From positions 19,894-83,893 of the forward strand of contig CACDOF010000001.1 in NCBI GenBank assembly GCA_902554315.1: a stretch of 64,000 nt of DNA, given 5' to 3'. Within the stretch, counting starts at the first letter, position 1. The number at the start of each line of letters is the position of its first letter. The DNA is from an uncultured Pelagibacteraceae bacterium (GTDB lineage Bacteria; Pseudomonadota; Alphaproteobacteria; Pelagibacterales; Pelagibacteraceae). The notes beneath the pieces were generated by a model, which worked only from the letters and a program-made list of their open reading frames with translations, had not been told where the DNA came from and did no database searches. A program made the translations under genes and the position numbers. This document shows positions 38,275 through 55,890 of this stretch, one piece after another.

Positions 38275-38303
38275 TTGACTCTCTATTCCTATGTTGCTGT
38301 AAT
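38275..38303 (+). promoter_or_regulatory. Candidate internal sigma70 promoter for the SBP gene
   Basis: TTGACT-17 nt-TGTAAT upstream of the SD GGAGG. Confidence 0.45.
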
Positions 38304-38338
38304 CCCGTTTTTATAAAAAACGTTTAAACGGAGGATAA

Positions 38339-39454: not shown

Positions 39455-39490
39455 TTTAAGTTTTAAAGACTAAAATTATATATTATATTT

Positions 39491-39520
39491 AGGGCGGTTA
39501 TTTTTAACCGCCCTTTTTTT
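39491..39520 (+). terminator. Terminator-like hairpin between the SBP and permease genes
   Basis: AGGGCGGTTA-T-rich loop-TAACCGCCCT-TTTTTT directly before the permease ATG. Confidence 0.85.
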
Positions 39521-40774: not shown

Positions 40775-40780
40775 ATATTT

Positions 40781-42067: not shown

Positions 42068-42167
42068 ATTAAATGTTTTTTTGAATAACCCATAAAAGCT
42101 ATATGGATATAAAAGTTTTAATATCAATAAAGATTTATGTAACAAGTTGCCACACAAAGAATATTTT

Positions 42168-43292
42168 TTAATTAATTGCCTCAATGATAGTTGCGATGCC
42201 CATGCCCAAGCCTATACATTGAGTAGATAGAGCGTATTTTTTATTTTCTCTTTTCAATAATTCAGCAGCTTTACCTGTAATTCTTGCTCCAGTAGCTCCA
42301 AGCGGATGACCTAATGCTAAAGCTCCACCATCTATGTTAACTTTTTTTTCATTTAGGTTTAAATCTTTAATACAAGCTAAGGATTGTGATGCAAATGCTT
42401 CGTTTAGTTCAACAATATCAATTTCGTTTGGGGATAATTTTGCTCTCTCTAAAGCTTTTTTAGATGCACCTATTGGTCCTAATCCCATATAATCAGGCTC
42501 ACAACCTTGCACCGCTGTAGAAACTATTCTTCCTAATATTTCTAAATTATTTTCTTTAGCAAACTGTTCTTCACATATCAAAGTCGCAGCAGCTCCATCA
42601 GTTAATGGAGAAGACGTTGCAGCTGTAACAGTTCCATTTTGATCGAATGCAAGCTTTAATCCATCCAAAGTTTCATGATTACTGTTTGGTCTTATATTGC
42701 CGTCTTTAGAACAGTTTCCTATTACTGTAATTTCATTATTAAAATTTCCCTTTGATTGTGCTTGAAATGCTTTATGATGACTTAATATAGCAAAATCTTG
42801 CTGTTCTTTTCTGCTAATATTATATTTTTTTGCAACATTTTCTGCAGTAATTCCCATTGAAAAATAAACATTTGGGTTTTCTTTATCAGAATATGGATAA
42901 GGTATAGAGTTAAATCCTGTAGTCACTCGCGTCATACTTTCAACTCCTCCACAAATAAAAGCTTTGCCTGATCCCATAGCGATCTTCCCAGCCGCTATAT
43001 GTATAGCTTCCATTGAGGATCCACACCATCTATCAACTGTCATCCCAGAAGTTCTGATATCCATTCCAGTTAAAAACGTTACTAGTTTTCCAATATTGAA
43101 ACATTGTTCGCCAACTTGAAATGCGCATCCAATAACAATATCCTCTATATCATTTGGGTTCACTTTAGATTTTGAAACAAGATTTTTTATAACTTCAGCT
43201 AATAAATTTACTGGCTTAACATCTATTAATTCGCCCTTTTTTGCCATTGTAAAAGGTGATCTTGAATATCCTGCTATTACTGATCTATACAT
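42168..43292 (-). CDS. Acetyl-CoA C-acyltransferase (thiolase)
   Basis: DRWCGSS, NEAFA, GHPLGATG, CIGLGMG. Confidence 0.93.
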   Translation of the reverse strand: MYRSVIAGYSRSPFTMAKKGELIDVKPVNLLAEVIKNLVSKSKVNPNDIEDIVIGCAFQVGEQCFNIGKLVTFLTGMDIRTSGMTVDRWCGSSMEAIHIAAGKIAMGSGKAFICGGVESMTRVTTGFNSIPYPYSDKENPNVYFSMGITAENVAKKYNISRKEQQDFAILSHHKAFQAQSKGNFNNEITVIGNCSKDGNIRPNSNHETLDGLKLAFDQNGTVTAATSSPLTDGAAATLICEEQFAKENNLEILGRIVSTAVQGCEPDYMGLGPIGASKKALERAKLSPNEIDIVELNEAFASQSLACIKDLNLNEKKVNIDGGALALGHPLGATGARITGKAAELLKRENKKYALSTQCIGLGMGIATIIEAIN

Positions 43293-43312
43293 TTTTCTTT
43301 ATACTTATAAGA

Positions 43313-44458
43313 TTATTTTGGAAATGGTAAAGTAGTTATAATGCCTTTTCTTTTTTTTCCATCATAAGTTTCAACATTTAATTTTTGACCAATATCCCAA
43401 TAATCTTTTAAAATCATTGATAGACCAATATTTTTCTTTAATCTAGGCGAATATATGCCTGAAGCAATCTGACCAATTTTTTTATTTTTTTCTGAATATA
43501 CTGAAAGCGGTTTTCCTGTTGCTAAACATGGCTCGCCTTCAAACAAAATCCCTCTCATCTTTTGTTTAATGCCTTCTAATTTAATTTTTTTTAAAGCTTC
43601 TCTTCCAATAAATTCGTGGTTTTCACATTCAGAACAATATTTTTCTAGATTACATTCTAGAGGATTGTTCTCTTTAGTAAAATCATTGCCATATGAAAGT
43701 AGGCCAGCTTCGATTCTATCTATTAAATTGGGACAACCAGGAGAAATATTAAACTTTTGTCCTGCTTTCCAAATTATATCCCAAAGTTTTTCTCCTAACT
43801 CGACTCCGTTAAAGTGTTCTTCAAAACCTTTAAAATAAATTTCAAACCCATCTTGTCTGCTATACCCCGATCTTGCTATAATTTGTTTTGTTCCTAAAAA
43901 ATCAAATATTTTAAAATTAAAAAACTTTATTTTTTTTATATCTTCTCCAAATATGGATACCATTAATGCTTCTGATTTGGGACCTTGAACTGCCAAAGGA
44001 TAGACATCAGGTTCAACTATATTTACGTCAAAATTAGATCCTAACGCAAGACCTTTTGCCCACAACAAAATGTCAGAGTCAGCAATAGAAATCCAAAACA
44101 TATCATCATCAAGTTTAAGTAAAACAGGATCATTTATCATTCCTGCATTTTCATCAATTATTGGAATATAAAAACATTTACCTGTTGCCATATTTTTAAT
44201 TGAACGTGGTGTCATTTTTTGTACTAGTTTTTGAGCATCAGGACCACTTATTTGTACTTGTCTTTGGCATGAGACATCCCAAATTTGAACATGTTCATTA
44301 AGGTGCCAGTAATCTTCTTCTACAGATTTTTTAAAACCTTTTGGTAAAAGCATATGATTTACAACAGTAAAATCTGAAACGCCACACTGTTCAACTTTAT
44401 TAGTAAAAGGTGTTCTTCTTATACGTCTTGACATATTTAATTTTATATTTTTTTTCAT
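43313..44458 (-). CDS. dmdA: DMSP demethylase DmdA homologue (GcvT family)
   Basis: SRRIRRTPF, NHMLLP, HVQIWDV, NDPVLLKL, WISIADSD, PGCPNLIDRIEAGLLSYGND. Confidence 0.8.
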   Translation of the reverse strand: MKKNIKLNMSRRIRRTPFTNKVEQCGVSDFTVVNHMLLPKGFKKSVEEDYWHLNEHVQIWDVSCQRQVQISGPDAQKLVQKMTPRSIKNMATGKCFYIPIIDENAGMINDPVLLKLDDDMFWISIADSDILLWAKGLALGSNFDVNIVEPDVYPLAVQGPKSEALMVSIFGEDIKKIKFFNFKIFDFLGTKQIIARSGYSRQDGFEIYFKGFEEHFNGVELGEKLWDIIWKAGQKFNISPGCPNLIDRIEAGLLSYGNDFTKENNPLECNLEKYCSECENHEFIGREALKKIKLEGIKQKMRGILFEGEPCLATGKPLSVYSEKNKKIGQIASGIYSPRLKKNIGLSMILKDYWDIGQKLNVETYDGKKRKGIITTLPFPK

Positions 44459-44481
44459 AACTGAAGTTTTAATTGCTAATT

Positions 44482-44817
44482 TTAATCAGACCACCAAATT
44501 GAGTAGCCATTGGGTGATACAATTATTGGTATATGATATTTTTTATCTGGGTCTGTCATTTTAAATTTAATTGTAATTTCTGAAACTATTTTTTTTTCAG
44601 AAAAATAATCTCCAGTTTTACAAACCATTTCATACTCAGATTTACAGTCATCATCACTAAGGTTAAATTCTTTTAAAACCCTACCTCCATCATCAGTTTT
44701 AGTTTTGCAGAAAATTTTTTTTTCACCATTTGATTTAATTTGATAGATAATTATATCTACATTGCTTGCGTGAGTACCGTTAACTGAATTTAATAAATGT
44801 GAAGATAAAGTTGCCAT
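44482..44817 (-). CDS. Transthyretin-like/5-hydroxyisourate hydrolase family protein with an atypical C-terminus
   Basis: LSSHLLN..GTHA, TDDGGR, YHIPIIVSPNGYS; ends in WWSD rather than YRGS. Confidence 0.8.
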   Translation of the reverse strand: MATLSSHLLNSVNGTHASNVDIIIYQIKSNGEKKIFCKTKTDDGGRVLKEFNLSDDDCKSEYEMVCKTGDYFSEKKIVSEITIKFKMTDPDKKYHIPIIVSPNGYSIWWSD

Positions 44818-44819
44818 AA

Positions 44820-46559
44820 TTATTCTATTGATGACTTTTCTCTTTTTGTTGCAACAGCAGCAACTATTGGGCTCAATACAGGCTTTGCTTTAACATTTAC
44901 ACATGCAGTTTTACCACTTTCTATTGCTCTTTTTAAAGCTGGAGCAAGTTCTTCTCTTTTTGTAACGAGTTCACCATGTCCTCCAAAACCTTGAAAGATT
45001 TTATGGAAAGGAATATCTCTAAAGTCAGTTGCTACACGTTTTCCACTTTTAAATAACCTTTCTTGTTGCTGTCCTATAGAAGCCAAACCCTCATTATTAT
45101 CTATTACAACAGTAATTGGTTTTTTTTCATAAAAAGCTGCCTCTATTGACATTCCACCAGATAAAAAAGCTCCATCTCCACTTATAAGAACAACATTTGA
45201 ATTAGGATTATTATTTTTTGCGGATAAAGCAAAAGATACTCCAACACCCAGCATACTAAAAGTACCAGGGTGTAAAATTCCTCCAAGCTTTTTTCCTTTT
45301 GCTCCAGCAATATTTATGGCAATTTCTGACCAAAAATGAGTGTTTCCTCCATCAATTACTAACCAATCCTTTTCTCCCATTGCATCTTGAACATCTAAAG
45401 CGAGTTGAAGAGGATGTATTTTACCACCATTTTTTTTTGCTTTTTCTGCTTCTAAACTTAAATCTTTTAATGAACTTTCAACCCATTCATTTTTTTTAAC
45501 TTTATTTTGATCAAACCATTTACTGTCTAAATTCCATTTATTATTTTTTTTTAAATTTTTTAAAGTATCTAAGAAAACTCCTGGGTCACATAAAAGATTA
45601 ATATCCGCAGCTCTATTGATTTCTATTTCTTCATGAGAACCATTTATGCATACTAATTTAGTAGATTTTGGAAAAAAGGGAGGATTGCCAAAATTCATTT
45701 GATTATCCAATCTTGCCCCAACCATTAAAACTAAATCGGAGTTATTTAATGCAAACTGTGATGGAGGGAATTGATGAATATCAGCTAAACCCATGTAGGC
45801 GTTGGCCTCTTCCCCTAATAATTTTTGATGATAAGGAATATTAAAAATTGGAATATTCAAATTATTGCCAGCTTCTTCTAAATTTTTTTCAGATTTAGAC
45901 CACCATACTCCATGACCTCCGATTAATACTGGCTTTTTTGCACTACAAGCAAGTTCTAAAATTTCAGAAATTGAATTTGGATCGGGCCAAGCTTTCGCAA
46001 TAGGTTTTGCTTTATGAGAAAATGGTCTTTCTTCTAATCCTGCCTCTTCTGGAAACGAAGAAAACATTATATCAACAGGTAAACTTAAATGAACAGCGCC
46101 TGGATATCCATTTGTTGCAATTCTATAAGCCTTATCTACAAATTCTCTTATTCTATTTCCGTCAGTAATACTTGCGCTGTATTTTGTTAATGGTGCAGCT
46201 ATTGAAACATCGTCTATTTCTTTAAATCCACCTGAACCCTGCCTTTTTAGACTACTTGATCCGGTAATATAAATTATTGGTGTTCTTTCTCCCCAGGCCT
46301 CCATCATGGAAGGAACGGCATTTGCAAATCCTTCCGGACCAACTAAACAAACAGATGGTTTTCTTGTTATTCTAGTATGCCCATCAGCTAAATGTCCAGC
46401 AATTTGTTCGTGAGGACAATTAATAACTTCCATTTGGCATTCCATAAAACCTTCAATTGCTGGATTACAAAAACCCCCAGATAAAGTAAAAACTTTATCA
46501 ATACCTTTGTCTCTTAACGCTCTAGCTATTAATGCTCCACCTCTAATTTTTTTGTCCAT
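44820..46559 (-). CDS. ThDP-dependent enzyme (acetolactate synthase/2-hydroxyacyl-CoA lyase-like)
   Basis: HEQIAGHLADG, PGTFSMLGVG, GDGAF...DNN. Confidence 0.88.
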   Translation of the reverse strand: MDKKIRGGALIARALRDKGIDKVFTLSGGFCNPAIEGFMECQMEVINCPHEQIAGHLADGHTRITRKPSVCLVGPEGFANAVPSMMEAWGERTPIIYITGSSSLKRQGSGGFKEIDDVSIAAPLTKYSASITDGNRIREFVDKAYRIATNGYPGAVHLSLPVDIMFSSFPEEAGLEERPFSHKAKPIAKAWPDPNSISEILELACSAKKPVLIGGHGVWWSKSEKNLEEAGNNLNIPIFNIPYHQKLLGEEANAYMGLADIHQFPPSQFALNNSDLVLMVGARLDNQMNFGNPPFFPKSTKLVCINGSHEEIEINRAADINLLCDPGVFLDTLKNLKKNNKWNLDSKWFDQNKVKKNEWVESSLKDLSLEAEKAKKNGGKIHPLQLALDVQDAMGEKDWLVIDGGNTHFWSEIAINIAGAKGKKLGGILHPGTFSMLGVGVSFALSAKNNNPNSNVVLISGDGAFLSGGMSIEAAFYEKKPITVVIDNNEGLASIGQQQERLFKSGKRVATDFRDIPFHKIFQGFGGHGELVTKREELAPALKRAIESGKTACVNVKAKPVLSPIVAAVATKREKSSIE

Positions 46560-46562
46560 TAT

Positions 46563-47723
46563 TTAATATTTCATATCCTTAAAAAACTTCTGAGCTATAA
46601 TATCAGATGTAATTTCATTAATATCAGTTAATCCTACTAAACCAAGTGTTGTGCTCAATTCTCCTTTAATAATATTTAAGATTTTTCTCAAACCTTTTGC
46701 TCCATCAGCTCCTATGGCGTACATTAATGGCCTACCAATCATGACATAATCTGCACCGAAAGCAAGAGCTCTAACTATATCGCCACCACTTCTTATACCA
46801 CTATCAAAAAGTAATGGAAATTCTTTCCCTAAAGCTTTTCTTATCAAAGGCAAAGCATTAATCGCAGATGTTGCGCTTTCCAATTGTCTTCCTCCATGAT
46901 TTGAAACTTGTATTCCATCTGCACCTAACTCTTTTATTTTTATAGCATCCTCTTGAGACATAACACCTTTAACAATTAATTTTCCTTTCCAAGCACTTCT
47001 GATCCGTTTTAATGTATCCCAATCAGTAGAGCCTCTGCTTTCACTTCTCACAAATTTATTTCCCTTTTTTGAAGTTTCGTAGTTCATTGGTTTTGGTATT
47101 CCATATAATAGAGTTGAGATAGACCAATTTGGATGAGTTGCAAAATCATAAAATTGTTTAGGTCCAATCTTAAATGGAACTGTAAAGCCATTTTTATCAT
47201 CTTTGGCTCTTCTAAATTGAATTGGAACATCTACAGTTAATATCAATACTTGATAGCCAGTTTTTTCCGCTCTTTCTAAAAGTTCCATCACAAAATCTTC
47301 ATCTTGAAATATATATAACTGCAGCCAAGAATTACCTTCTGATAAATCAAACATTTTTTCTAGGGAAGTAGATGAAGCCATGGATACACATGTTGGAATA
47401 TTGTTAATTACACTTTCTTTTGCAAGCATTGTGTCTGCGCCCGGCCAAGTTAAATTACACATTCCCATAGGCGCAAAACCAAAAGGCAGATCATACTTAA
47501 TTTTAAAAAATTCTTTACTTAAATTTCTTTTTTCAACATTCCTAAGAACTTTTGGTTCAAGTCTTATCTGGTCTAATGCTGTACTGTTTAATTCACAAAG
47601 TTTTTCATCTCCTGAAGCACCATCTACAAAATCAAAAAACATTTTTGGAAGTCTTTTTTTGGCAAGTTTACGTGCATCCTCAAGACTATGTATTTTTTTA
47701 CTTGGTGTAATTTTTTCACTCAT
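46563..47723 (-). CDS. FMN-dependent alpha-hydroxy-acid oxidase/dehydrogenase
   Basis: LAKKRLP..FFDFVDG, WLQLY, LTVDVP, SNHGGRQLE, DSGIRSGGD. Confidence 0.92.
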   Translation of the reverse strand: MSEKITPSKKIHSLEDARKLAKKRLPKMFFDFVDGASGDEKLCELNSTALDQIRLEPKVLRNVEKRNLSKEFFKIKYDLPFGFAPMGMCNLTWPGADTMLAKESVINNIPTCVSMASSTSLEKMFDLSEGNSWLQLYIFQDEDFVMELLERAEKTGYQVLILTVDVPIQFRRAKDDKNGFTVPFKIGPKQFYDFATHPNWSISTLLYGIPKPMNYETSKKGNKFVRSESRGSTDWDTLKRIRSAWKGKLIVKGVMSQEDAIKIKELGADGIQVSNHGGRQLESATSAINALPLIRKALGKEFPLLFDSGIRSGGDIVRALAFGADYVMIGRPLMYAIGADGAKGLRKILNIIKGELSTTLGLVGLTDINEITSDIIAQKFFKDMKY

Positions 47724-48412
47724 AAACTATTTTTTATATGTTCTTTTAGACTAATTTTTTTATTTTTATCTATAAAATAAGCATCATGATTTTTTCTTGA
47801 AGAATAAACTTCTGATGGTTTTCCGTCAATAAAAAGCACTGCTACGCCATCATCAATGGCAATTCCTTTGGGCATCTCGCTATTTTCAATGTCATTTTTG
47901 AACTTTTTTAATCTTTCATTTTCTGATGAATGAGGCGTACAACTTCCTGAAATTAAATTTATACCCCTTAACGCTTTTAATCCTATACCTTCTGAGTCTG
48001 ACAATATCCAATCAAACCAGCATATTGCCCCTGCACTTACTCCAGATAAAATTATTCCTTTATTGTAAGCTTCTCTAAAAATTTCTATTAAATTATTTTT
48101 TTTCCAAATTTCAAGCATATATGAAGTATTTCCTCCACCAACATAGATAATGTCTTTGCTTAAAATCCAATCCTTAAAACCTTCTACTTTTGAGCAGAGG
48201 TTAAAATGTGACAATTGTAAGTAATTACTTTCAAATCTTTTATAAAATAAATCAATTTTTTTTTTATCATCTTTGCTTGCGGTAGGTAAAAATCCAATTT
48301 TAAAGTTTTTTATATTTACTTGATTTAAAACAAATTGATCTAGACTTTCATCTGTTTCATTAGTAAAGCCACCTCCGCCAATCGAAATTATTTTTTTTTT
48401 ATTCCTGTCCAT
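47720..48412 (-). CDS. Peptidase E (S51) family
   Basis: IGGGG, FLPTAS, YVGGGNT, GVSAGA, CTPH. Confidence 0.85.
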   Translation of the reverse strand: MDRNKKKIISIGGGGFTNETDESLDQFVLNQVNIKNFKIGFLPTASKDDKKKIDLFYKRFESNYLQLSHFNLCSKVEGFKDWILSKDIIYVGGGNTSYMLEIWKKNNLIEIFREAYNKGIILSGVSAGAICWFDWILSDSEGIGLKALRGINLISGSCTPHSSENERLKKFKNDIENSEMPKGIAIDDGVAVLFIDGKPSEVYSSRKNHDAYFIDKNKKISLKEHIKNSL

Positions 48413-49614
48413 GGATTGGGTTTATTAGGAATATCTTTATTTTTTCCTCGAACTATTTCTCCTTTGAAGTCATACATTGGAAGTTTGCACAATTCACCTT
48501 TATATGTATTACCATTTGTGCAATCAACATCAAGAATTGTTCCAGGACCTAAGTTACTATTTTGCATATGAACAATTCCTACGCCACAAACTTGATAAGG
48601 CGACCATGTGCTTGAAGTAACTTCTCCAACAATTTTTCCATTTATTTTCAAACTTTTTCCTCTTATAGCAGTTCCTTTTTCAACACGTATACCCCAAGTT
48701 AAACATTCTTTATTAGATTTTTCTAAGGCTTCTTTGCCAATAAAATTATTTTTATTTATGTCAATGAATCTTCCAAGTCCTACAGAATATGGGTTCGTTT
48801 TATTTGTAAAATCTTGACCAGCTGAAAGAAGACCTGCTTCAATTCTTCTACAACGAAAAACTGGAGTAGCCGTTAAGATCATTCCAATCTTTTTACCTTC
48901 TTCAAGTATTAAATCTCCCAATTTTTCTATATTATTTTCTGGGCGAAAATATATTTCCCATCCAAGCTCGTTACTAAATCCGGAGCGACTTATTATAATT
49001 TTTTCTCCTGACATGCTTACTTCTTTCCAGTCAAAATATTTCCAATCTGAAGATATATTAGACTCTGTTAAAAAATCTAAAAGTTGCATTGATTTTGGAC
49101 CTTGTATTTGACTTACCCAAACATTAGGTTCGGTAATATTTACATTTAAACCTTCTGCCTGAGCTTTATACCAAGAAAACATATCGCCCTCAGCTTGAGC
49201 AAACCAGTATTTGTTTTGATCTAGCCTCAACAATACTCCATCAGTGATCATCCCACCATCATGATAACAAGCAAATTGATAAGAACATCTTCCTATTTTA
49301 ACTTTTGAAACATCTCTAGGAAAAATTTTTTGTAAAAGTTTTAGTGCATCAGATCCAGATATCTCATAAGGATGCTCTCCTGTATGTCTAAAAATTAATT
49401 CCTGTCTTATTTTCCAATACATTTCTTCTGCAGAAGCATTAGAAAGTTTTTCTGGTGTAAGTCGACCTGCATAAATAGAATACTCTGGATCAAAAGGTAA
49501 TTCTTGATAAGTTAAAGGATGTAAACCTATAGTTCTTGCTAACTCTAAAGCACTTTCTCCTTCAGAAATTATTGGTTTAACAGAAAATCTGAACTTACTT
49601 AAGTTTTTATTCAT
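48388..49614 (-). CDS. THF-dependent aminomethyltransferase/demethylase (GcvT family, DmdA-related paralogue)
   Basis: EISGSDA, GGMITDGVLLRL, QIQGPKS, SRSGFSNELGWEIY, RRIEAGLLS. Confidence 0.85.
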   Translation of the reverse strand: MNKNLSKFRFSVKPIISEGESALELARTIGLHPLTYQELPFDPEYSIYAGRLTPEKLSNASAEEMYWKIRQELIFRHTGEHPYEISGSDALKLLQKIFPRDVSKVKIGRCSYQFACYHDGGMITDGVLLRLDQNKYWFAQAEGDMFSWYKAQAEGLNVNITEPNVWVSQIQGPKSMQLLDFLTESNISSDWKYFDWKEVSMSGEKIIISRSGFSNELGWEIYFRPENNIEKLGDLILEEGKKIGMILTATPVFRCRRIEAGLLSAGQDFTNKTNPYSVGLGRFIDINKNNFIGKEALEKSNKECLTWGIRVEKGTAIRGKSLKINGKIVGEVTSSTWSPYQVCGVGIVHMQNSNLGPGTILDVDCTNGNTYKGELCKLPMYDFKGEIVRGKNKDIPNKPNPWTGIKKK

Positions 49615-49685
49615 TTATTTAATATATTTAGGCAAGTTAGTTTAACTATTTAATACAATCAATAAAAACGTAACAAATTTGACTG

Positions 49686-49714
49686 TTGCCATAAAGGTAT
49701 TGAATTGTTAACTT
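49686..49714 (+). promoter_or_regulatory. Candidate sigma70 promoter for the family-5 ABC operon
   Basis: TTGCCA-17 nt-TAACTT with TGn before the -10; SD GAGAGGG downstream. Confidence 0.45.
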
Positions 49715-49741
49715 TCTTTTTTTTAATAGAGAGGGAAATAT

Positions 49742-51229
49742 ATGAAAAACATTTTTAAATTGATATCATTTTACTTGATATCACTATTTTTATCATTTTC
49801 TTTAGCCAATGCATCAAGTGGGGTTTTTAAACTATCACATGACCTTGGATTTGGAAAAGATACAAATTTAGATGCGATAACTAAAGGTCGTTTGTTTCAA
49901 GTTGTTATAATGACACAAAACCGTTTAGTTAGAAAAAACCTTGACGGAGTAACTTCGCCGGAATTAGCAACTGACTGGACAGGTAATGCAGATGCTACAG
50001 AGTGGACATTTAATCTTCGTAAAGGAGTTAAATTTCATGATGGTTCTGACTTTGATGCAGAAGATGTAAAATACTCTTTAATGAGAGTTAAAGATCCTGA
50101 CATTGGATCGCCTGCTAAAAAAAGTATGAGCTCAGTTACAGATATAGAAGTTGTAGATTCACACACAGTTAAAATGAAGTTAAATACTTCTTTTGCAGAT
50201 TTTCCACTTCTATTAACAGATTATAGGTTAAGAATGATACCTTCTGGTTCTGGTGACACAATAGGAAAAACAGGTATTGGAACTGGTCCTTTTATTGTCG
50301 ATAAATTTGATGCAGAAGGAACAACTATTCTTAAAGCAAATCCTAATTATTGGGAAGGAGCTCCAAAAATTGCTGAGGTTCATGTAATTGCCATACCTGA
50401 TGGTGAAGCAAGAGTGCAAGCTCTCCTTACTGGACAGATTGATATGAACAGATATGTTAAATTTAATCAGAAAAAAATATTTGATGGTAATTCCAAGTTT
50501 AATGTTTCTGTAATACCCACAGGGAATTGGAGAGGTATGGTTATGAGAACAGACACTGCTCCTTTTGATAACCCTAAAGTTAGAAAAGCTGTACGTTTGG
50601 CAGTAGACAGACAAGAGCTTGTTGATCTTGTAATGGATGGAGCAGCAACTGTATCATGCGATACTCCAGTTGCACCATCTGATCAATATCGTCTAGATAT
50701 GGATTGCCCTCAGGATATTAGTAAAGCCAAAAACTTATTAAGAGAAGCGGGATATCCAAATGGAATAGAAATGGTTATCCATGTTTCAACTAAAGAGCCT
50801 ACTTGGCCAACAATTGGTGAGGTACTTCAACAACAATTTGCAAAAGCTGGAATAAAGGCTGAAGTTAAAATGACTCCATCAAAAAGTTATTGGAAAGAAA
50901 CTTGGATGAAAAAAGCAGTATCAATGACTCGTTGGAATGAAAGACCAGCCGATAGTATACTACATGAAGCTTATCATAGTGGAGCAAAATGGAATGAATC
51001 TTTTTATAAAAGTTCATCATTTGATAAAAATCTAGCAAATGCTAGAGGACAGCTTGACTTTAATAAGAGAAAAGCAGCTTATCAAAATGCTCAAAAGACT
51101 TTATGGGAAGAAGCTGGAACAATGATTCCATACCATGTATCGAGATTAGTTGTAACTTCTTCAAGAGTAAAAAATCTTGATGAAGTAGAATTTTTCTCAA
51201 TTAGATGGCATACATTATCAGTAGATTAA
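49742..51229 (+). CDS. Family-5 (Dpp/Opp-like) ABC substrate-binding protein
   Basis: PELATDW, WTFNLRKGVKFHDGS, GTGPF, PFDNPKVRKA. Confidence 0.92.
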   Translation: MKNIFKLISFYLISLFLSFSLANASSGVFKLSHDLGFGKDTNLDAITKGRLFQVVIMTQNRLVRKNLDGVTSPELATDWTGNADATEWTFNLRKGVKFHDGSDFDAEDVKYSLMRVKDPDIGSPAKKSMSSVTDIEVVDSHTVKMKLNTSFADFPLLLTDYRLRMIPSGSGDTIGKTGIGTGPFIVDKFDAEGTTILKANPNYWEGAPKIAEVHVIAIPDGEARVQALLTGQIDMNRYVKFNQKKIFDGNSKFNVSVIPTGNWRGMVMRTDTAPFDNPKVRKAVRLAVDRQELVDLVMDGAATVSCDTPVAPSDQYRLDMDCPQDISKAKNLLREAGYPNGIEMVIHVSTKEPTWPTIGEVLQQQFAKAGIKAEVKMTPSKSYWKETWMKKAVSMTRWNERPADSILHEAYHSGAKWNESFYKSSSFDKNLANARGQLDFNKRKAAYQNAQKTLWEEAGTMIPYHVSRLVVTSSRVKNLDEVEFFSIRWHTLSVD

Positions 51230-51240
51230 TATAAAATAGT

Positions 51241-51272
51241 GTTTTACAGGCCTAGTTAAAGGCCTGTAAAAC
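51241..51272 (+). terminator. Stem-loop after the SBP gene
   Basis: Perfect 13-bp stem GTTTTACAGGCCT-agttaa-AGGCCTGTAAAAC. Confidence 0.8.
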
Positions 51273-51324
51273 TTGTTTCATTTATTAATAATTAATTTTA
51301 AAATCGAGACTAGTAATCTTAATT

Positions 51325-52281
51325 ATGTTGTTTTTAATTATTAAAAGAATTTTATTAGGCTTTATAACCTTATTTATTGTATCGTTAATTACTTTTGTAG
51401 GTACAGAAGTGTTACCAGGGGATGCCTGCACAACTTATCTTGAAAGAGAAGCTTATGGTGCAGCATTAGAAGCTTGTTACAAAAGATTAGGATTGGATAT
51501 TCCTGCTTATGAAAGATATTTATCATGGGCATATAATGTTATCCAAGGAGATTTTGGGTATTCATTAAGCGGTCAAATGCCAATTAATGAAGTTTTAGGA
51601 CCGAGAATAAAAAATTCAATGGTTTTAGCATCTGCTGCAATAATTATAGGAATACCATTAGCTTTAATACTAGGAATAATCACAGCTCTTTGGAGAGATA
51701 AACTGCCTGATTTAGCAATTTCAACAATAACCATTTTTGCAATGACAATTCCAGAATTTATAAGTGCAACTTTGCTAATTTTAATAGTTGCTATTTGGCT
51801 GCAATGGTTGCCAGGGATTGTGATAGTACCCACAGACGTTACGTTTTTTGAATTACTTCCAAATATAATACTGCCAGTCATAGCTATTGCTATGATAATG
51901 ACAGCACATATGGCTCGAATGGTTAGGTCAAGCGTCATTCAAGTTATGGCAAGTGATTATATACAAATGGCAATTTTAAAAGGTGTACCATATTGGAAAA
52001 TGGTTTTTAAACATGTTTTACCCAATGCATTATTACCAGCAATTAATGTTGTGGCGTTAACTATTGCTTGGCTTTTAGGAGGAGTTGTAGTTACAGAAGT
52101 TGTATTTAATTATCCAGGTCTTGGTAGACTTGTTATAGAATCTATTTCAAATAGAGACTTACCAACTGTACAGGCGTTAGCAATTATTCTTGCTTCAATT
52201 TATGTGAGTATAAACTTAATTGCAGATTTATTGACATTAGCATTAAACCCTAGATTAAAGAGTTTACAAATAAGAAAATAA
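51325..52281 (+). CDS. DppB-like ABC permease
   Basis: LPGD, GDFGYS, RMVRSS, HVLPNA, VFNYPGLG. Confidence 0.92.
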   Translation: MLFLIIKRILLGFITLFIVSLITFVGTEVLPGDACTTYLEREAYGAALEACYKRLGLDIPAYERYLSWAYNVIQGDFGYSLSGQMPINEVLGPRIKNSMVLASAAIIIGIPLALILGIITALWRDKLPDLAISTITIFAMTIPEFISATLLILIVAIWLQWLPGIVIVPTDVTFFELLPNIILPVIAIAMIMTAHMARMVRSSVIQVMASDYIQMAILKGVPYWKMVFKHVLPNALLPAINVVALTIAWLLGGVVVTEVVFNYPGLGRLVIESISNRDLPTVQALAIILASIYVSINLIADLLTLALNPRLKSLQIRK

Positions 52282-52283
52282 AT

Positions 52284-53177
52284 ATGGATATAGATAAAAT
52301 TTCTGAAGAAGAACAAAAAAATTCACTTTCAAAAGTTTTAGAGGTATTAAAAACAATGGCCTCAAAACCCTCAGGCTTTATTGGTTTATTTATTTTAGTT
52401 TTTCACGTTGTTTTAGCATCTGTAAGTCCTTTTTTGGCACCTTATGATTATAAAGCAATCGATCCTACACTTATGCTTCAAGCACCATCTTCAGAATATT
52501 GGTTTGGCACTGATAGTTTAGGTAGAGATGTTTTCACAAGAACAATAATGGGCGGAAGAACTGCTCTGACCATAACTTTCTTTGGCTCTCTTATAGCTTT
52601 GCTTTGGGGAGGTTTGTTAGGAATATTTTGTGGATTGGTAGGTGGAAAAATTGATGATGTTGTAATGAGAATAGTGGATGCTTTCTTATCTATACCATGG
52701 ATATTAGCAATGTTATTGATAGTATCTCTTCTAGGAACATCTACAGAAGTATTAATTCCTGCTCTTGGTTTTTTTTATGGTAAAGGAATAGTAAGAGTGG
52801 CGAGAGCCGCAACTCACGATGTAATTGCAAAAGATTTTATTGTTTCTGCTCGTGCCAGAGGACATAGTAATATGTCAATTATTTGGAATGAAATTATACC
52901 AAATGTCAGAGATGCAATTTTAGTTGAAGGTGCTATGAGATGGTCATGGATGTTACTTGGATTTAGTTCCTTGTCTTTTTTAGGATTTGGTGTGAGCCCA
53001 CCAACACCAGACTGGGGACTAATGATTTCAAACGCAAGAGGATTAATGTCATTTGCTTATTGGGCTGTTATAGCACCAGTAGTAGGGTTAAGTAGCTTAA
53101 TTATTGGAATAAATTTGACAGCCGATGCATTTGCAAAAGCACTTGGTATTGATAGATCAACCAAAGCACCAGTTTAA
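52284..53177 (+). CDS. DppC-like ABC permease
   Basis: WFGTDSLGRDVF, SLSFLGFGVSPPTPDWG. Confidence 0.92.
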   Translation: MDIDKISEEEQKNSLSKVLEVLKTMASKPSGFIGLFILVFHVVLASVSPFLAPYDYKAIDPTLMLQAPSSEYWFGTDSLGRDVFTRTIMGGRTALTITFFGSLIALLWGGLLGIFCGLVGGKIDDVVMRIVDAFLSIPWILAMLLIVSLLGTSTEVLIPALGFFYGKGIVRVARAATHDVIAKDFIVSARARGHSNMSIIWNEIIPNVRDAILVEGAMRWSWMLLGFSSLSFLGFGVSPPTPDWGLMISNARGLMSFAYWAVIAPVVGLSSLIIGINLTADAFAKALGIDRSTKAPV

Positions 53178-53181
53178 TTTT

Positions 53182-55206
53182 ATGAGCGATATAATTCAAA
53201 AAGTTAAAAATCTTTCAATTGGTTTCAGAAGTAAAAAAGGTGAAGAAATTCTTATTCTTAGAAATATTTCAACAAATATCAAAAAGGGTGAAACAGTGGG
53301 CATAGTAGGAGAGTCTGGTTCTGGAAAGAGCACATTAGCTTTGGCTATGATGGGATATGTAAAACAAGGCCTTTATACTATTGATGGAGAATGTTTATTT
53401 GAGTCTTCCAATTTGCTTAAAAAAAATAATAGAGAACTAGAAAAAATTAGAGGGAGAAAAATAGCAATGATACCTCAAAATGCAGGTCAATCTTTAACTC
53501 CAAATTTAAAAATAGGATATCAAATAGACGAAGCATTAAGATTACACACAAACTTGAAAAATATTGACAGAGATAAAAGAATTTCCGAATTATTAAAAAA
53601 AGTAAGACTACCTTCGCCTGAAACAATTGCTTTGAGATATCCTCATGAGCTTTCAGGAGGTCAACAACAAAGAGTTGCAGTAGCAATGGCTTTGGCAGGC
53701 AATCCAGAATTGTTATTGTTAGATGAGCCTACAACAGGATTAGATGTAACAACTCAAGCTCATGTTTTAGAATTATTAAATTTTATTGCAAAAGATACTG
53801 GCACATCAATGGTATACGTTAGTCATGATCTTGGTGCAATAGCACAAGTTAGTGACAGAATTATAGTTATGTACTCTGGAGAGATTGTTTTAGAAGGCCC
53901 TTCAAGAAGTATACTAAAAAAACCAATTCATCCTTATACTTATGGACTTTTAAAGTCTATACCTAAACTTTCATTGGCTGGATTACCCGACTCAATGCCG
54001 GGCAGTCAACCACAGCCAGGAAGTATATTAAAAGGATGTAGTTTTTTTAGTAGATGCAATATAGGAGAAGACAAATGTAAAAATAATTCACCTGAACTTG
54101 AGTATATAAGCGATTTAAAAACTAGCGTTAGATGTTTTAATTATAAAAGTTTGAAAAATAAAGATGATATTTCTAGCTCAATATCAAGAAACGAGGCAAT
54201 TATTAATGAAAAAGAAATTTTAAATTTAACCAATGTATCAATTAGCTATGCAAAACAAAAATTAATTGACCAAATCTTTAATAAAACAGTAGACACAAAC
54301 CCAACTGTTAAAGATATTAACATTAATATAAATAAAGGAGAAACAATTGCGTTAGTTGGAGAGTCGGGAAGTGGTAAATCTACTATTTTAAAATCTATTG
54401 CTGGATTACTTAAAACAAAAGATGGAAAAATTAGGTTTGAAAAAGATAGAGATTTATCTTCAAATTTAAAACAAAGAAAACCAAATGATCTTCGAGCTAT
54501 TCAATTAATTTTTCAAAATCCTGATGAATCATTAAATCCAAATCACAACGTTGAAGAAATACTTTCACAACCTTTGAAATTATATTTTGGACTATCAGGC
54601 AAAGAATTAAATAAAAATATTATTGAATTGCTTGAAAAGGTAAGGCTTGGAGAATTTTATATGTCTAGATATCCTAGACAATTATCTGGAGGTGAAAAAC
54701 AAAGAGTTGCAGTTGCTAGAGCATTTGCTGCAAAACCAGATATAATTTTGTGTGATGAAGTTACATCTGCTTTAGATGTTTCAGTTCAGGCAGCAGTATT
54801 AAATCTTTTACAAAAACTTAAAGATGATTTTGGTACGACCTATATCTTTGTTTCACATGATCTTGCTGTTGTTAGAGCTATAAGTGATAGAGTAGCTGTA
54901 TTATATCAAGGAAGATTATGCGAAATTGGTCCTTCAAAAAATGTATATCAATTTCCTTCACATCCTTATACGGAGGTTTTGCTTGGAGCTGTATTAGAAC
55001 CAGATCCAGATATAAAACCAAAACTTGTGGCAGAAGACATTGTTGAAGAAAAACCACCTGAGCAAGGCTGTTCTTTTCAAGGCAGGTGTTCAAGGATATT
55101 GGGGGAAAAATGCAAAAAAGAAACACCTCCATGGCAAATTACCAAAAGTGGTAACGCTATTAAATGCCATATAAATGTAAATGATTTAGAAAAACTACAA
55201 TCATAA
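53182..55206 (+). CDS. Fused DppD/DppF ABC ATPase
   Basis: Two GESGSGKS/LSGG cassettes, each with HPYT and a Cys-rich tail. Start reassigned to ATG 53182. Confidence 0.92.
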   Translation: MSDIIQKVKNLSIGFRSKKGEEILILRNISTNIKKGETVGIVGESGSGKSTLALAMMGYVKQGLYTIDGECLFESSNLLKKNNRELEKIRGRKIAMIPQNAGQSLTPNLKIGYQIDEALRLHTNLKNIDRDKRISELLKKVRLPSPETIALRYPHELSGGQQQRVAVAMALAGNPELLLLDEPTTGLDVTTQAHVLELLNFIAKDTGTSMVYVSHDLGAIAQVSDRIIVMYSGEIVLEGPSRSILKKPIHPYTYGLLKSIPKLSLAGLPDSMPGSQPQPGSILKGCSFFSRCNIGEDKCKNNSPELEYISDLKTSVRCFNYKSLKNKDDISSSISRNEAIINEKEILNLTNVSISYAKQKLIDQIFNKTVDTNPTVKDINININKGETIALVGESGSGKSTILKSIAGLLKTKDGKIRFEKDRDLSSNLKQRKPNDLRAIQLIFQNPDESLNPNHNVEEILSQPLKLYFGLSGKELNKNIIELLEKVRLGEFYMSRYPRQLSGGEKQRVAVARAFAAKPDIILCDEVTSALDVSVQAAVLNLLQKLKDDFGTTYIFVSHDLAVVRAISDRVAVLYQGRLCEIGPSKNVYQFPSHPYTEVLLGAVLEPDPDIKPKLVAEDIVEEKPPEQGCSFQGRCSRILGEKCKKETPPWQITKSGNAIKCHINVNDLEKLQS

Positions 55207-55255
55207 AAAAAATACTAAACATTTTTAATTATCTATGTTTTAATAGATTAAGTTT

Positions 55256-55822: not shown

Positions 55823-55890
55823 AATTTAGTTTTTTTATTTTCTTTAAGTTGCTCTGAAATGAATATTTTACTATAAGCATTGTTTAAAAT

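Follow-up and report, generated by a model that had tools for sequence, protein, structure and literature searches.

A 14.2-kb accessory block was found in the genome of an uncultured Pelagibacteraceae bacterium, in which a complete ABC importer is divergent from an operon carrying its own DmdA homologue. The block probably degrades a methylated sulfur compound related to DMSP. Judging from the encoded protein families and their neighbours in other taxa, it may be a catabolic island of SAR11 in which the importer and the operon serve a DMSP-related sulfonium compound, with 4-dimethylsulfonio-2-hydroxybutyrate (DMSHB) or a conjugate of it as the best candidate; I put the probability of this reading at roughly 40%. 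No paper that describes the conserved part of the operon was found in the literature, in line with the original prediction that the cluster is undescribed.

Gene organization of the locus

The window (the whole stretch of 64,000 nucleotides that was analysed) was mapped by ORFs and by Pfam and NCBIfam scans (Table 1). The minus-strand run encodes, in this order, a GcvT-like protein (GcvTL), an S51-family hydrolase, an FMN_dh enzyme, a ThDP enzyme, a transthyretin-fold protein, DmdA, a thiolase, and a pseudoazurin. The S51 gene overlaps the GcvTL gene by 25 nt and the FMN_dh gene overlaps the S51 gene by 4 nt, and the following gaps are 3 nt (FMN_dh/ThDP), 2 nt (ThDP/transthyretin), 23 nt (transthyretin/DmdA), and 20 nt (DmdA/thiolase). 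The divergent family-5 ABC system (49742-55206, plus strand) is complete, and a strong hairpin (51241-51272) lies 3′ of its SBP gene. Thus, the gene positions, the tight co-directional coupling, and the dedicated importer are as originally predicted. So is the lack of dmdB and dmdC nearby; dmdB- and dmdC-like genes adjoin the canonical dmdA on contig C27 of the same genome instead. The window's contig has neither an AMP-binding nor an acyl-CoA dehydrogenase gene.

Table 1. Features of the block, numbered from the first nucleotide of the window.
Feature	Position	Strand	Domain or model
Pseudoazurin, 182 aa	41636-42184	-	TIGR02375
Degradative thiolase, 374 aa	42168-43292	-	Thiolase_N + Thiolase_C, TIGR01930
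Module-specific DmdA, 381 aa	43313-44458	-	NF009133
W-type transthyretin-fold protein, 111 aa	44482-44817	-	Transthyretin Pfam domain
Orphan ThDP enzyme, 579 aa; module core	44820-46559	-	three TPP domains
FMN-dependent L-2-hydroxy-acid dehydrogenase/oxidase, LldD/MdlB-like, 386 aa	46563-47723	-	FMN_dh
S51-family serine hydrolase, 230 aa	47720-48412	-	Peptidase_S51
GcvTL, GcvT-like THF-binding protein, 408 aa; first gene of the operon	48388-49614	-	GCV_T + GCV_T_C
Family-5 SBP, periplasmic, 495 aa	49742-51229	+	SBP_bac_5
Two Opp/Dpp-type permeases	51325-52281, 52284-53177	+	BPD_transp_1 with OppC_N
Fused double ATPase	53125-55206	+	two ABC_tran + two oligo_HPY
BioY biotin transporter component	55256-55822	+	BioY Pfam domain

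An accessory block between potC and fadB

The unit is larger than the six genes listed in the original prediction. It spans 41636-55890 between potC and fadB, includes the thiolase and the ABC importer, and is a presence/absence unit of SAR11. In the window, a potD-like SBP gene and fadB are 16.4 kb apart. In four complete Pelagibacter genomes that lack the ThDP gene, this interval is 2.2 kb, which fits potB and potC alone, and the thiolase orthologue is absent too. The gene order, whose conservation had been proposed as a check, is identical in 80 of 80 related Pelagibacteraceae species loci, to the extent of each contig, and the same order was found in G141, G126, G006, and G019 (amino-acid identity 61-94%). 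Thus, the arrangement exceeds chance.

The block edges carry variable cargo (pseudoazurin, BioY, an aminotransferase, SBP_bac_3). The pseudoazurin (119.5 bits; cut-off 109.85) occurs in the window and in just one of the 80 related loci; potC abuts the thiolase gene in 68 of 69 loci, and in HIMB1623 a class-IV aminotransferase gene occupies the pseudoazurin position. The pseudoazurin is probably outside the pathway. BioY, detected alongside the ATPase gene at roughly half of the related loci (at ≥50% identity), is likewise edge cargo. The thiolase (TIGR01930, 409 bits; cut-off 240) is present in all of the 80 loci whose contig extends to its position, and a search of five Pelagibacteraceae genomes that lack the block did not find it. 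It belongs to the SAR11 block but not to the wider module described below.

A conserved module beyond SAR11

The conserved core is not the six-gene unit of the original prediction but FMN_dh-ThDP-transthyretin-DmdA, and the minimal core is the ThDP-transthyretin pair. The four-gene module recurs in G358, Pelagibius, a Rhizobiaceae-labelled MAG, a Methylocystis-labelled MAG, L146, and two further contigs, with the same order and a spacing of 0-25 nt in different alphaproteobacterial orders with different flanks. In these recurrent non-SAR11 settings, the DmdA identity is 59-60% and the ThDP identity is 68-71%, the latter measured against orthologues in Pelagibius and in Rhizobiaceae-, Hyphomicrobiaceae-, and Methylocystis-labelled MAGs. 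DmdA follows the ThDP-transthyretin pair in eight of the 12 genomic settings examined; the pair occurs without DmdA in G214, L143, and L145, and without the FMN enzyme in L143, L145, and L154. Only two of 400 sampled genomes of the class (G214 and G358) have the module, and no plasmid match was found in PLSDB.

The four-gene importer also lies beside the module in the L141 MAG, the P0377 contig, and HIMB1623, and the SBP gene adjoining the module of the Methylocystis-labelled MAG encodes a protein 50% identical to that of the window. Elsewhere the importer is of the TRAP or TAXI-TRAP type (Pelagibius and G214) or there is none (L146). In three lineages, an S51 gene occurs together with both the module and a family-5 ABC system. 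Other neighbours are genes for ApbA-type 2-oxo-acid reductases (three contexts), homocysteine S-methyltransferase (two), acyl-CoA ligase (two), MTTB-family proteins (four), crotonase, and ALDH, besides the class-IV aminotransferase of HIMB1623. MtnA/MtnB-like genes are also among the neighbours in other taxa, and in one context an MtnA-like isomerase is accompanied by class-II aldolases. The module dmdA of the Methylocystis-labelled MAG is followed by an MTHFR-like gene and purU, which fits a 5-methyl-THF product. Apart from the MTTB-family genes, the neighbours in other taxa suggest a chemistry of 2-hydroxy/2-oxo acids, of sulfonium or methylthio groups, and of CoA esters.

One DmdA-clade protein and a distant relative

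The original prediction regarded the two GcvT-family proteins as twin THF demethylases and proposed to place both in a DmdA tree. Only one of them falls inside the DmdA clade. The module DmdA scores 538.5 bits with NF009133 (cut-off 410) and 406 bits against P. ubique DmdA (3tfh), and is 49% identical to the canonical DmdA of the same genome. The module-linked DmdAs form a single clade (SH-aLRT 100) nested in the core DmdA clade. They have 79 invariant positions in common with canonical DmdA and differ systematically at just three conserved sites, where the module protein has F30, V33, and F260 (Y29F, Y32V, M251F). Because of this tree position and the 79 shared residues, the module-linked DmdA may well still act on DMSP. 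The canonical dmdA is retained in five of five module genomes checked, which argues for a distinct role of the module DmdA.

GcvTL reaches only 207 bits with the DmdA model, lies on a long branch outside the DmdA clade, and retains 40 of the 79 DmdA-invariant residues, so it was rejected as a DmdA. It is a distant, lineage-restricted relative, with orthologues in five of 401 genomes of the class, and is missing from most versions of the module.

The hydrolase named PepE in the original prediction does belong to the S51 family (Peptidase_S51, 122.7 bits). It fits neither the PepE nor the cyanophycinase model; both give about 27 bits, far under their cut-offs (156 for PepE). It belongs to a new subfamily, whose GxSAGA serine and histidine are kept from SAR11 through the Methylocystis-labelled MAG.

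FMN, ThDP and transthyretin-fold proteins

The predicted alpha-hydroxy-acid oxidase is indeed an FMN-dependent 2-hydroxy-acid enzyme (FMN_dh, 397 bits), closest to LldD/MdlB-type dehydrogenases. Its best curated model is L-lactate dehydrogenase (287 bits; cut-off 376). The SNHGGRQ His/Arg, RR, KG, and Tyr129 motifs are retained, and Phe replaces Tyr24 in seven of seven orthologues compared. The ThDP enzyme stays under the cut-off of all 50 curated NCBIfam models; its subfamily is present in at least 563 species genomes.

The transthyretin-fold gene is always directly 3′ of the ThDP gene, and its W-type subfamily comprises at least 100 clusters at 50% identity. The protein retains His7, Arg46, and His95, and His16 is a new invariant residue. 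It had been called HiuH-like; the HIUase model gives 74.5 bits, under the cut-off of 87.45, and the YRGS motif is absent, so it was rejected as a HIU hydrolase. Thus, the alternative of a methylated purine has lost its basis.

Possible substrate and pathway

I infer the following steps. The peptide/opine-type ABC importer would take up DMSHB or its conjugate. The module DmdA, by family membership, would move an S-methyl group to tetrahydrofolate, giving 5-methyl-THF; the FMN dehydrogenase, whose catalytic motifs are intact, would oxidise the 2-hydroxy-acid function, yielding a 2-oxo acid; and the ThDP enzyme would split the C1-C2 bond of this acid, in analogy to the mandelate pathway (MdlB/MdlC). 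The methylthio C3 unit might then enter the canonical DmdB/DmdC route encoded elsewhere in the genome, or the 2-oxo acid might instead be transaminated to methionine. The W-type transthyretin-fold protein would partner the ThDP enzyme in one step. The S51 hydrolase, GcvTL, and the thiolase may be lineage-specific add-ons, which could respectively free the acid from an amide- or ester-linked form, take off a further methyl group, and act on a CoA ester. In seawater DMSHB may be a prominent compound, and the converting enzymes of most bacteria are not known (PMC11306096).

The demethylation-oxidation-decarboxylation logic of the original prediction is still the best fit, helped by the neighbours in other taxa, including the MTHFR-like gene plus PurU. 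A strictly algal DMSHB reading predicts neither the non-marine-labelled MAGs nor the versions without DmdA. The algal precursor is no obvious nutrient for the Methylocystis-, Rhizobiaceae-, and Hyphomicrobiaceae-labelled MAGs, and the ThDP-transthyretin pair exists without DmdA or without the FMN enzyme in some genomes. Algal DMSHB is the D-enantiomer, while FMN_dh enzymes are L-specific. The DMSHB scheme leaves the transthyretin-fold protein without a role, even though no other protein accompanies the ThDP enzyme as faithfully, and the SAR11 block has no aldehyde dehydrogenase that would convert the decarboxylation product to an acid. Moreover, a free hydroxy acid needs neither a peptide/glutathione/opine-type SBP nor an S51 hydrolase. 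The MTTB-family neighbours point to quaternary amines over sulfonium, and the high ThDP identity across orders suggests a common small substrate.

Some of these points lead to a less likely reading, in which the block acts on a methylated onium compound that is peptide-like or conjugated, possibly a betaine-type quaternary ammonium rather than a sulfonium. This compound would be imported by the glutathione/dipeptide/opine-type ABC system, opened by the S51 hydrolase, and demethylated by GcvTL, the DmdA-like protein, MTTB, or homocysteine methyltransferase, and its skeleton would pass through a 2-hydroxy/2-oxo acid to the ThDP enzyme. The joint occurrence of family-5 ABC and S51 genes with the module in three separate lineages, the 50% SBP identity, the glutathione, dipeptide, or agropinic acid ligands of the nearest solved SBPs, the MTTB genes, and the OpuAC betaine-type ABC system adjoining a distant GcvTL orthologue all favour it. 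However, the GcvT-family member of the module is a true DmdA-clade protein with the 79 invariant positions, and S51 and the family-5 importer are missing from Pelagibius, G214, and L146. Direct methyl transfer to THF is known for sulfonium compounds and aryl methyl ethers, but not for quaternary amines. Somewhat more doubtful is the possibility that the pair acts on a small common 2-oxo acid or an oxalyl/formyl-type (thio)ester, such as FMN-oxidised glyoxylate or its (thio)hemiacetal, as the analogy to oxalyl-CoA decarboxylase/2-hydroxyacyl-CoA lyase would suggest. Hydrolysis of the product would fall to the transthyretin-fold protein, and DmdA would be an ordinary DMSP demethylase, co-located as both feed THF-linked C1/methanethiol metabolism. 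Oxidation of glyoxylate thiohemiacetals to oxalyl thioesters has been reported for 2-hydroxy-acid oxidases. Such a role of the pair would agree with the nearest solved ThDP relatives, the very high ThDP conservation, and the frequent CoA-related neighbours (thiolase, crotonase, acyl-CoA ligases), as well as with the pair adjoining glycolate oxidase GlcDEF in L143, lying behind three TauD/TfdA-type dioxygenases in L145, and having only a TAXI-TRAP carboxylate transporter in G214. On the other side, all OXC/HACL curated models stay under cut-off on the ThDP enzyme (214-243 against 557-600 bits), the frequency with which DmdA, in a clade of its own, follows the pair exceeds loose co-location, and the MTHFR-like gene after DmdA fits methyl transfer over formaldehyde capture.

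It is improbable that the arrangement has no pathway meaning, with a redundant DMSP demethylase and unrelated genes that travel together on a flexible island of the genome. In favour are the presence/absence pattern of the block, its variable edge cargo, and a DmdA that is above the curated threshold with nearly all DmdA-invariant residues kept; against this, the four genes keep order and spacing across orders with different flanks, and streamlined SAR11 genomes retain both DmdA copies. Even less probable is an anabolic role, in which DMSHB would undergo oxidative decarboxylation to DMSP (DDC) by the FMN enzyme, alone or together with the ThDP enzyme, and DmdA would control the pool; DMSHB taken up by the cells would then become a source of the osmolyte DMSP. 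One member of the FMN_dh family, lactate 2-monooxygenase, is an oxidative decarboxylase. The occurrence of the module in Pelagibius and in a Rhizobiaceae-labelled MAG is in favour, as is its restriction to two of 400 sampled genomes. For most bacteria and algae, the enzyme behind DDC is not identified; the activity was found in Rhizobium and L. aggregata, whereas R. pomeroyi lacked it (PMC11306096). Nevertheless, the importer and the demethylase look catabolic, and the null PLSDB result also speaks against this role.

Comparison with known systems

The SBP (SBP_bac_5, 292 bits) reaches the cut-off of no curated model; the best is GsiB, and its nearest solved structures are YliB/GsiB, HbpA, AgaA, and DppA. 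Those of the FMN enzyme are lactate oxidase and (S)-mandelate dehydrogenase, and those of the ThDP enzyme are oxalyl-CoA decarboxylase/2-hydroxyacyl-CoA lyase and benzaldehyde lyase (about 188 bits). In contrast to HIUase, which ends in the YRGS motif, the transthyretin-fold protein has the C-terminus GYSIWWSD.

Gene content and conservation of the block

The window corresponds to G000:C1:19894-83893, on contig C1 of its own genome (958 kb, 65% complete, 30% GC). The ORF list and the domain scans bore out the original prediction that a co-directional gene run is divergent from a complete family-5 ABC importer; the run is on the minus strand. The earlier labels are right in part. Curated thresholds are exceeded only by DmdA, the thiolase, and the pseudoazurin. 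The S51-family serine hydrolase (S51) lies far below the PepE cut-off, and the W-type transthyretin-fold protein (TTR) lies below that of 5-hydroxyisourate (HIU) hydrolase.

Features of the block and its surroundings (window positions)
Feature	Position	Strand or orientation	Remarks
GcvT-like protein (GcvTL)	48388-49614	-	ORF list and domain scan
S51 peptidase	47720-48412	-	overlaps GcvTL gene by 25 nt
FMN_dh flavoenzyme	46563-47723	-	overlaps S51 gene by 4 nt
ThDP enzyme	44820-46559	-	3-nt gap to FMN_dh gene
TTR	44482-44817	-	2-nt gap to ThDP gene
DmdA	43313-44458	-	23-nt gap to TTR gene
Thiolase	42168-43292	-	20-nt gap to DmdA gene
Pseudoazurin	41636-42184	-	TTG start; overlaps thiolase gene by 17 nt; at block edge
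Complete family-5 ABC importer	49742-55206	divergent from minus-strand run	domain scan
Hairpin	51241-51272		between SBP gene and first permease gene
pot-type ABC operon	37153-41635		flanks the block

Is this block common in SAR11? A degenerate-pattern scan with one genome per species found the ThDP subfamily in at least 563 genomes, the best 80 of which are all Pelagibacteraceae genomes of single-cell or metagenome origin. The original prediction depended on a conserved gene order. The same order, namely BioY/FadB-ATPase-permease-permease-SBP, divergently GcvTL-S51-FMN_dh-ThDP-TTR-DmdA-thiolase, and then potCBA, is kept in all of these best 80 loci, as judged to the end of each contig, and the count is no statistic as the genomes are kin. 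In four further genomes, the block proteins are 61-94% identical, indicating that the block has been maintained over the long term. Of 150 further genomes sampled evenly across the family, only 4 have the ThDP gene.

The limits of the block were revealed by genomes lacking it. The potD-like SBP gene and fadB are 16.4 kb apart in the window, but four complete Pelagibacter genomes that lack the ThDP gene have them 2.2 kb apart, a spacing that fits potB and potC and nothing more. A thiolase orthologue was found neither in these four genomes nor in a fifth genome from another genus of the family. Thus, positions 41636-55890 constitute a 14.2-kb presence/absence block, the thiolase gene included. 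The edges are variable. Pseudoazurin is present in the window and in one of the 80 related loci, while BioY is present in about half of them. Pseudoazurin might conceivably be linked to the operon, for instance as the electron acceptor of its flavin dehydrogenase.

I found that a cultured strain, 'Ca. Pelagibacter sp. HIMB1623' (locus L158), carries the same block. Its lineage, which also includes loci L014 and L015, has two extra genes (L158:12655-13530 and L158:5623-6351) that are absent from the 80 closest loci. One encodes a class-IV aminotransferase of the branched-chain/D-amino-acid type and sits after the thiolase gene. The other is an SBP_bac_3 gene in the opposite orientation between the GcvTL and S51 genes.

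The search for RNA elements was negative. Rfam gave nothing at the gathering threshold for the whole window and nothing at E ≤ 1 for positions 41000-56500, leaving no riboswitch clue to the ligand. A promoter/terminator scan found sites no more numerous than in shuffled sequence; the sole notable feature is the hairpin after the SBP gene. This perfect, GC-rich 13-bp hairpin may be an attenuator or stabilizer within the operon, setting a high SBP:permease ratio. The flanking pot-type operon, with one orthologue per Pelagibacter genome, encodes an ATPase with a TOBE domain, an SBP_bac_8 protein, and two permeases. If its SBP is orthologous to that of a DMSP/betaine importer, the island would lie directly beside such an importer.

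A distinct clade of DmdA

The block DmdA scores 538.5 bits (cut-off, 410) against the equivalog model NF009133 over positions 3-364 of 369, and 538 bits when the whole genome was searched. Both GcvT-family proteins were placed in trees of 44-46 GcvT-family sequences, which were quick IQ-TREE runs with SH-aLRT support only and no bootstrap, and from which biochemically proven DmdA reference strains were left out. DmdA fell inside the DmdA clade and GcvTL fell outside. Both score and placement support the DmdA label. The module-linked DmdAs of SAR11, G358 (a genome of another family), Pelagibius, the Rhizobiaceae- and Methylocystis-labelled MAGs, and locus L146 form one clade (SH-aLRT 100). This clade is nested within a core DmdA clade (SH-aLRT 99-100), which also includes the canonical SAR11 type (the genome's own copy on contig C27 and that of genome G008) and a top-scoring high-GC group. 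The branch to the module clade is not longer than the neighboring branches. Canonical and module DmdAs have 79 invariant alignment positions in common. At just three positions is each group conserved in its own way, with Tyr29, Tyr32, and Met251 of the canonical type replaced by Phe, Val, and Phe in the module type (F30, V33, and F260 in the window protein). The loss of two hydroxyls and the smaller size of one side chain would be compatible with a somewhat altered or bulkier ligand.

A canonical DmdA is also present in every module genome examined. In the window's own genome, it is 49% identical to the window copy and is followed by AMP-binding (DmdB-like) and acyl-CoA dehydrogenase (DmdC-like) genes, which is the classical dmdABC arrangement; the trio occupies C27:399-4126 (L002) on a separate, short contig. 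As had been predicted, dmdB and dmdC are not near the module: the AMP-binding and acyl-CoA dehydrogenase genes were found beside the C27 copy, and no gene for an acyl-CoA ligase (AMP-binding) or an acyl-CoA dehydrogenase was found on the window's contig. Among 30 DmdA loci fetched from a 401-genome sample of the class, a TTR gene precedes only the two module copies. The clade placement and the genomic setting together indicate that the protein truly belongs to the DmdA family and has a conserved genomic role of its own; its substrate may be DMSP or a related compound. In one MAG, an MTHFR-like gene and purU after the DmdA orthologue may point, indirectly, to methyl transfer to THF giving 5-methyl-THF.

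A third DmdA-like gene exists in genomes G126, G141, G006, and G019 (e.g., G141:C1:418775-419857), scoring about 390 bits, just below the cut-off. A SAR92 DmdA-like protein failed to complement a dmdA mutant (PMC10746254), and dmdA subclades C/2 and D have been attributed to SAR11 (PMC7370799).

The block had been described as encoding twin THF demethylases. This description was not sustained for GcvTL, which is below the cut-offs of two GcvT models (143.8 versus 300 bits and 109.9 versus 235.85 bits) and DmdA (206.8 versus 410 bits). GcvTL belongs to a separate, long-branched clade, retains 40 of the 79 DmdA-invariant residues, and is found in 5 of 401 genomes of the class. A distant GcvTL relative adjoins an OpuAC-type betaine ABC system.

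The other proteins of the block

The flavoenzyme matches the FMN_dh model with 397 bits and keeps the SNHGGRQ (His/Arg), RR, KG (Lys), and Tyr129 motifs, while it stays below two subfamily cut-offs (286.6 versus 376 bits and 240.7 versus 550 bits). The seven orthologues compared all carry Phe in place of Tyr24, and a long loop of the LldD/MdlB type is present. The enzyme, earlier named alpha-hydroxy-acid oxidase, is closest to the LldD/MdlB-type dehydrogenases. For S51, the PepE label was abandoned (27.1 versus 156 bits), and the cyanophycinase model gave 26.4 versus 126.6 bits. S51 passes the general Pfam S51 model with 122.7 bits, and its serine nucleophile motif GxSAGA and a His residue are conserved. 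The nearest solved relatives of the SBP bind glutathione, dipeptides, or agropinic acid.

TTR had been called HiuH-like. It scores 74.5 bits against TIGR02962 (cut-off, 87.45) and lacks the YRGS motif, in place of which it has W-W/Y-S-x, so the label does not apply. True HIU hydrolases in the same search have YRGS. In 11 orthologues, His7, Arg46, and His95 are invariant, as is an added His16; within the C-terminal sequence GYSIWWSD, Ser106 and Trp108 alone are invariant. A signal peptide is absent. A search of 1.8 billion representatives gave at least 100 clusters of the W-type subfamily, separate from the YRGS hydrolases. Some longer transthyretin-family proteins (260-290 aa; P0384, P0387, P0418, P0428, and others) have two matched stretches and invariably terminate in YRGS; they look like fused or tandem HIU hydrolases. 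The W-type proteins are single-domain.

None of 50 ThDP models reached its cut-off with the ThDP enzyme; the best scores were 266.9 versus 587, 243.5 versus 600, and 214.2 versus 557 bits. The enzyme is unusually conserved, with 68-71% identity between SAR11 and Rhizobiales-type genomes. No small subunit (ilvN/H), CoA ligase, or CoA transferase was found in the block. Glyoxylate carboligase and AruI-type readings of the enzyme were considered; neither model is among the 25 best curated matches listed. A complex prediction for the ThDP enzyme and TTR, both given as alignments, scored 0.00 and weighs neither way.

The module outside the SAR11 block

The ThDP-TTR pair was examined in 12 genomic settings, with the SAR11 block counted as one.

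Settings of the ThDP-TTR pair outside the SAR11 block
Setting	Gene content
G358 (other family, 31% GC)	SBP5-homocysteine S-methyltransferase-GcvTL-FMN_dh-ThDP-TTR-DmdA-OsmC-crotonase
Methylocystis-labelled MAG	family-5 importer, S51, LysR, then FMN_dh-ThDP-TTR-DmdA, weak MTHFR-like gene, purU, TctC
Pelagibius	four module genes with DctPQM TRAP system, LysR, ApbA, MTTB
Rhizobiaceae-labelled MAG	four module genes divergent from acyl-CoA ligase; LysR and ApbA present
L146	four module genes, no companions
P0208 contig	four module genes divergent from MtnA-like isomerase and class-II aldolase; nearby second aldolase, MTTB, further GcvT gene
P0377 contig	S51-MTTB-ApbA-FMN_dh-ThDP-TTR-GcvT, adjoining family-5 importer
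L154	LysR, ThDP as two ORFs, TTR, GcvT, CN_hydrolase; no flavoenzyme
G214 (59% GC)	FMN_dh-ThDP-TTR with TAXI-TRAP transporter; only DmdA-like gene 1 Mb away
L143	ThDP-TTR alone, near glcDEF
L145 (Hyphomicrobiaceae-labelled MAG)	three tandem TauD/TfdA-family dioxygenase genes directly upstream of ThDP-TTR; no flavoenzyme, no DmdA

The commonest form of the unit has the flavoenzyme gene before the ThDP-TTR pair and the DmdA gene behind it. Since the pair persists where the flavoenzyme, DmdA, or both are missing, the minimal invariant unit is the ThDP enzyme plus TTR. The family-5 importer with S51 is a recurring accessory in three lineages. The G358 version lacks S51, and its family-5 system differs from that of SAR11. 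Compared with the window, the Methylocystis-labelled MAG has an SBP of 50%, an S51 of 36%, and a DmdA of 59% identity; a homocysteine S-methyltransferase gene is also near its module. The core is much older than the SAR11 block enclosing it. A search of the PLSDB plasmids for the module gave no match.

In L154 (L154:5173-6873, from a 2.7-Mb genome), the two ThDP ORFs encode a TPP_enzyme_N domain (216 aa) and the M and C domains (331 aa). A second assembly has the gene divided in the same way, so that either a frameshift or a truly split enzyme could be involved. The dioxygenases of L145 (L145:5205-10278) may provide another entry into the same two-enzyme step.

Possible substrates

The reading I favor tentatively, with a probability of about 0.4, takes the block as an island for the breakdown of a methylated sulfonium compound that is related to DMSP and bears or yields a 2-hydroxy acid. 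DmdA would transfer a methyl group to THF, the flavoenzyme would perform an oxidation step, and the ThDP enzyme would cleave a C-C bond. The product might then enter the DmdB/DmdC route, whose genes lie elsewhere in the genome, or undergo transamination to methionine. The neighbors in other taxa support this reading: ApbA-type 2-oxo-acid reductases, homocysteine S-methyltransferases, the MtnA-like and aldolase genes, and further the MTHFR-like gene with purU, acyl-CoA ligase, crotonase, ALDH, and aminotransferase genes. 4-Dimethylsulfonio-2-hydroxybutyrate (DMSHB) is the best named candidate, although this identity is doubtful. DMSHB is possibly a prominent marine compound, and for most organisms its converting enzymes have yet to be identified (PMC11306096). 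In the most specific form, which is equally doubtful, the FMN dehydrogenase, the ThDP enzyme, and the W-type TTR would be the missing bacterial route of DMSHB conversion or consumption (its oxidative decarboxylation to DMSP, the DDC step, or a catabolic counterpart), with a welded DmdA clade acting on DMSHB or the resulting DMSP. Several points stand against the sulfonium-acid reading and keep both the general and the specific estimates low. TTR has no assigned role; the importer is of the peptide type and paired with S51; an aldehyde dehydrogenase is absent from the SAR11 block; some versions of the pair lack DmdA or the flavoenzyme; MTTB genes are nearby in four contexts; and some MAGs that carry the module have labels that do not sound marine.

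Some of these points suit other explanations. The peptide-type importer, S51, and the MTTB genes would be expected if the substrate were a peptide-like or quaternary-amine conjugate; this is unlikely, if the foremost of the alternatives. A little less probable is that the ThDP-TTR pair acts on a small 2-oxo acid or thioester, which would agree with the versions of the pair without DmdA, while the commonest form of the unit includes DmdA. It is improbable that the arrangement has no pathway meaning: edge genes do vary, but the core order recurs in the best 80 loci and in other families. An osmolyte-converting DDC role would also use the flavoenzyme and ThDP steps, and is about as improbable in a block that couples them to an importer and a DmdA. 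A purine/HIU reading was rejected, given the TTR features described and the absence of purine-catabolism genes from all 12 settings.

Significance

To follow the main fate of marine DMSP, dmdA is the usual standard marker gene, and most of its copies are in SAR11, which is sulfur-auxotrophic. Here, a distinct DmdA clade above the curated threshold is always encoded last in a ThDP/transthyretin/flavin module and occurs together with a canonical dmdA-dmdB-dmdC set. If the module DmdA acts on another sulfonium such as DMSHB, estimates of DMSP demethylation drawn from gene counts also contain another flux, and a SAR11 route to reduced sulfur and methyl groups would be uncovered. Should the most specific reading above hold, a whole dmdA clade in ocean surveys would report DMSHB rather than DMSP turnover, and the W-type TTR proteins would be a new enzyme family acting on the products of ThDP enzymes. 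Whatever the substrate, the ThDP-TTR pair is a conserved two-gene unit with unassigned chemistry in at least several hundred species.

Literature searches found no paper describing the module. New here are the delimitation of the block by potC and fadB in this lineage, the finding that the family-5 importer and S51 recur together in three lineages, the extent of the W-type TTR subfamily, the MTHFR-like/purU and MtnA-like contexts, and the cultured carrier. Also new are the monophyly of the module-linked DmdAs, including Rhizobiales-type members, and the three subfamily-specific substitutions. As HIMB1623 is cultured, the question is open to bench testing.

Comparison with known systems

The importer resembles GsiABCD, DppABCDF, and AgaA in its four components, fused double ATPase, and family-5 SBP, with GsiB/YliB and HbpA as the nearest solved proteins. 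However, its SBP is far below all curated cut-offs (GsiB, 182 versus 594 bits), and the importer is tied to the module and S51 in three lineages, not to peptide or glutathione metabolism. TTR shares the fold family, a similar length (111 aa), and the His-Arg-His positions with the HIU hydrolases and transthyretin-like proteins (PucM, E. coli, Salmonella). In contrast to them, it has GTHA (containing His16) in place of GxPA, and the purine-catabolism context is missing.

In the mandelate pathway of Pseudomonas putida, MdlB is an FMN-dependent (S)-mandelate dehydrogenase and MdlC is a ThDP-dependent benzoylformate decarboxylase. As in that pathway, the gene for an FMN L-2-hydroxy-acid dehydrogenase is directly followed by a ThDP gene, and the flavoenzyme matches full-length (S)-mandelate dehydrogenase 6bfg with 248 bits. 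The common logic would be conversion of a 2-hydroxy acid to a 2-oxo acid and then C-C cleavage. Unlike MdlC, the module ThDP enzyme is closest to OXC/HACL/BAL and does not resemble benzoylformate decarboxylase. Moreover, the module lacks a racemase, the SAR11 block lacks an aldehyde dehydrogenase, and TTR and a THF methyltransferase are added.

As in the DMSP demethylation pathway (DmdA-DmdB-DmdC-DmdD/AcuH) of 'Ca. Pelagibacter ubique' HTCC1062 and Ruegeria pomeroyi, a DmdA-family protein is encoded, here by the last core gene; it matches the solved P. ubique DmdA 3tfh with 406 bits. A crotonase or acyl-CoA ligase gene is beside the module in some lineages, as in that pathway. In contrast, the module dmdA never adjoins dmdB/dmdC, as the canonical C27 dmdA does, and its product departs from canonical DmdA by the three substitutions. 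It always comes after the ThDP enzyme and TTR, both foreign to the known route. The ThDP enzyme has its best matches in oxalyl-CoA decarboxylase, 2-hydroxyacyl-CoA lyase, and acetolactate synthase, with which it has in common a three-domain organization, a catalytic Glu, and a GDG...NN ThDP motif. Unlike these enzymes, it is below half of every curated cut-off and has no ilvN/ilvH, CoA ligase, or transferase gene with it in the SAR11 block. Rather, it belongs to a subfamily that is 68-97% identical internally and is defined by its TTR partner.
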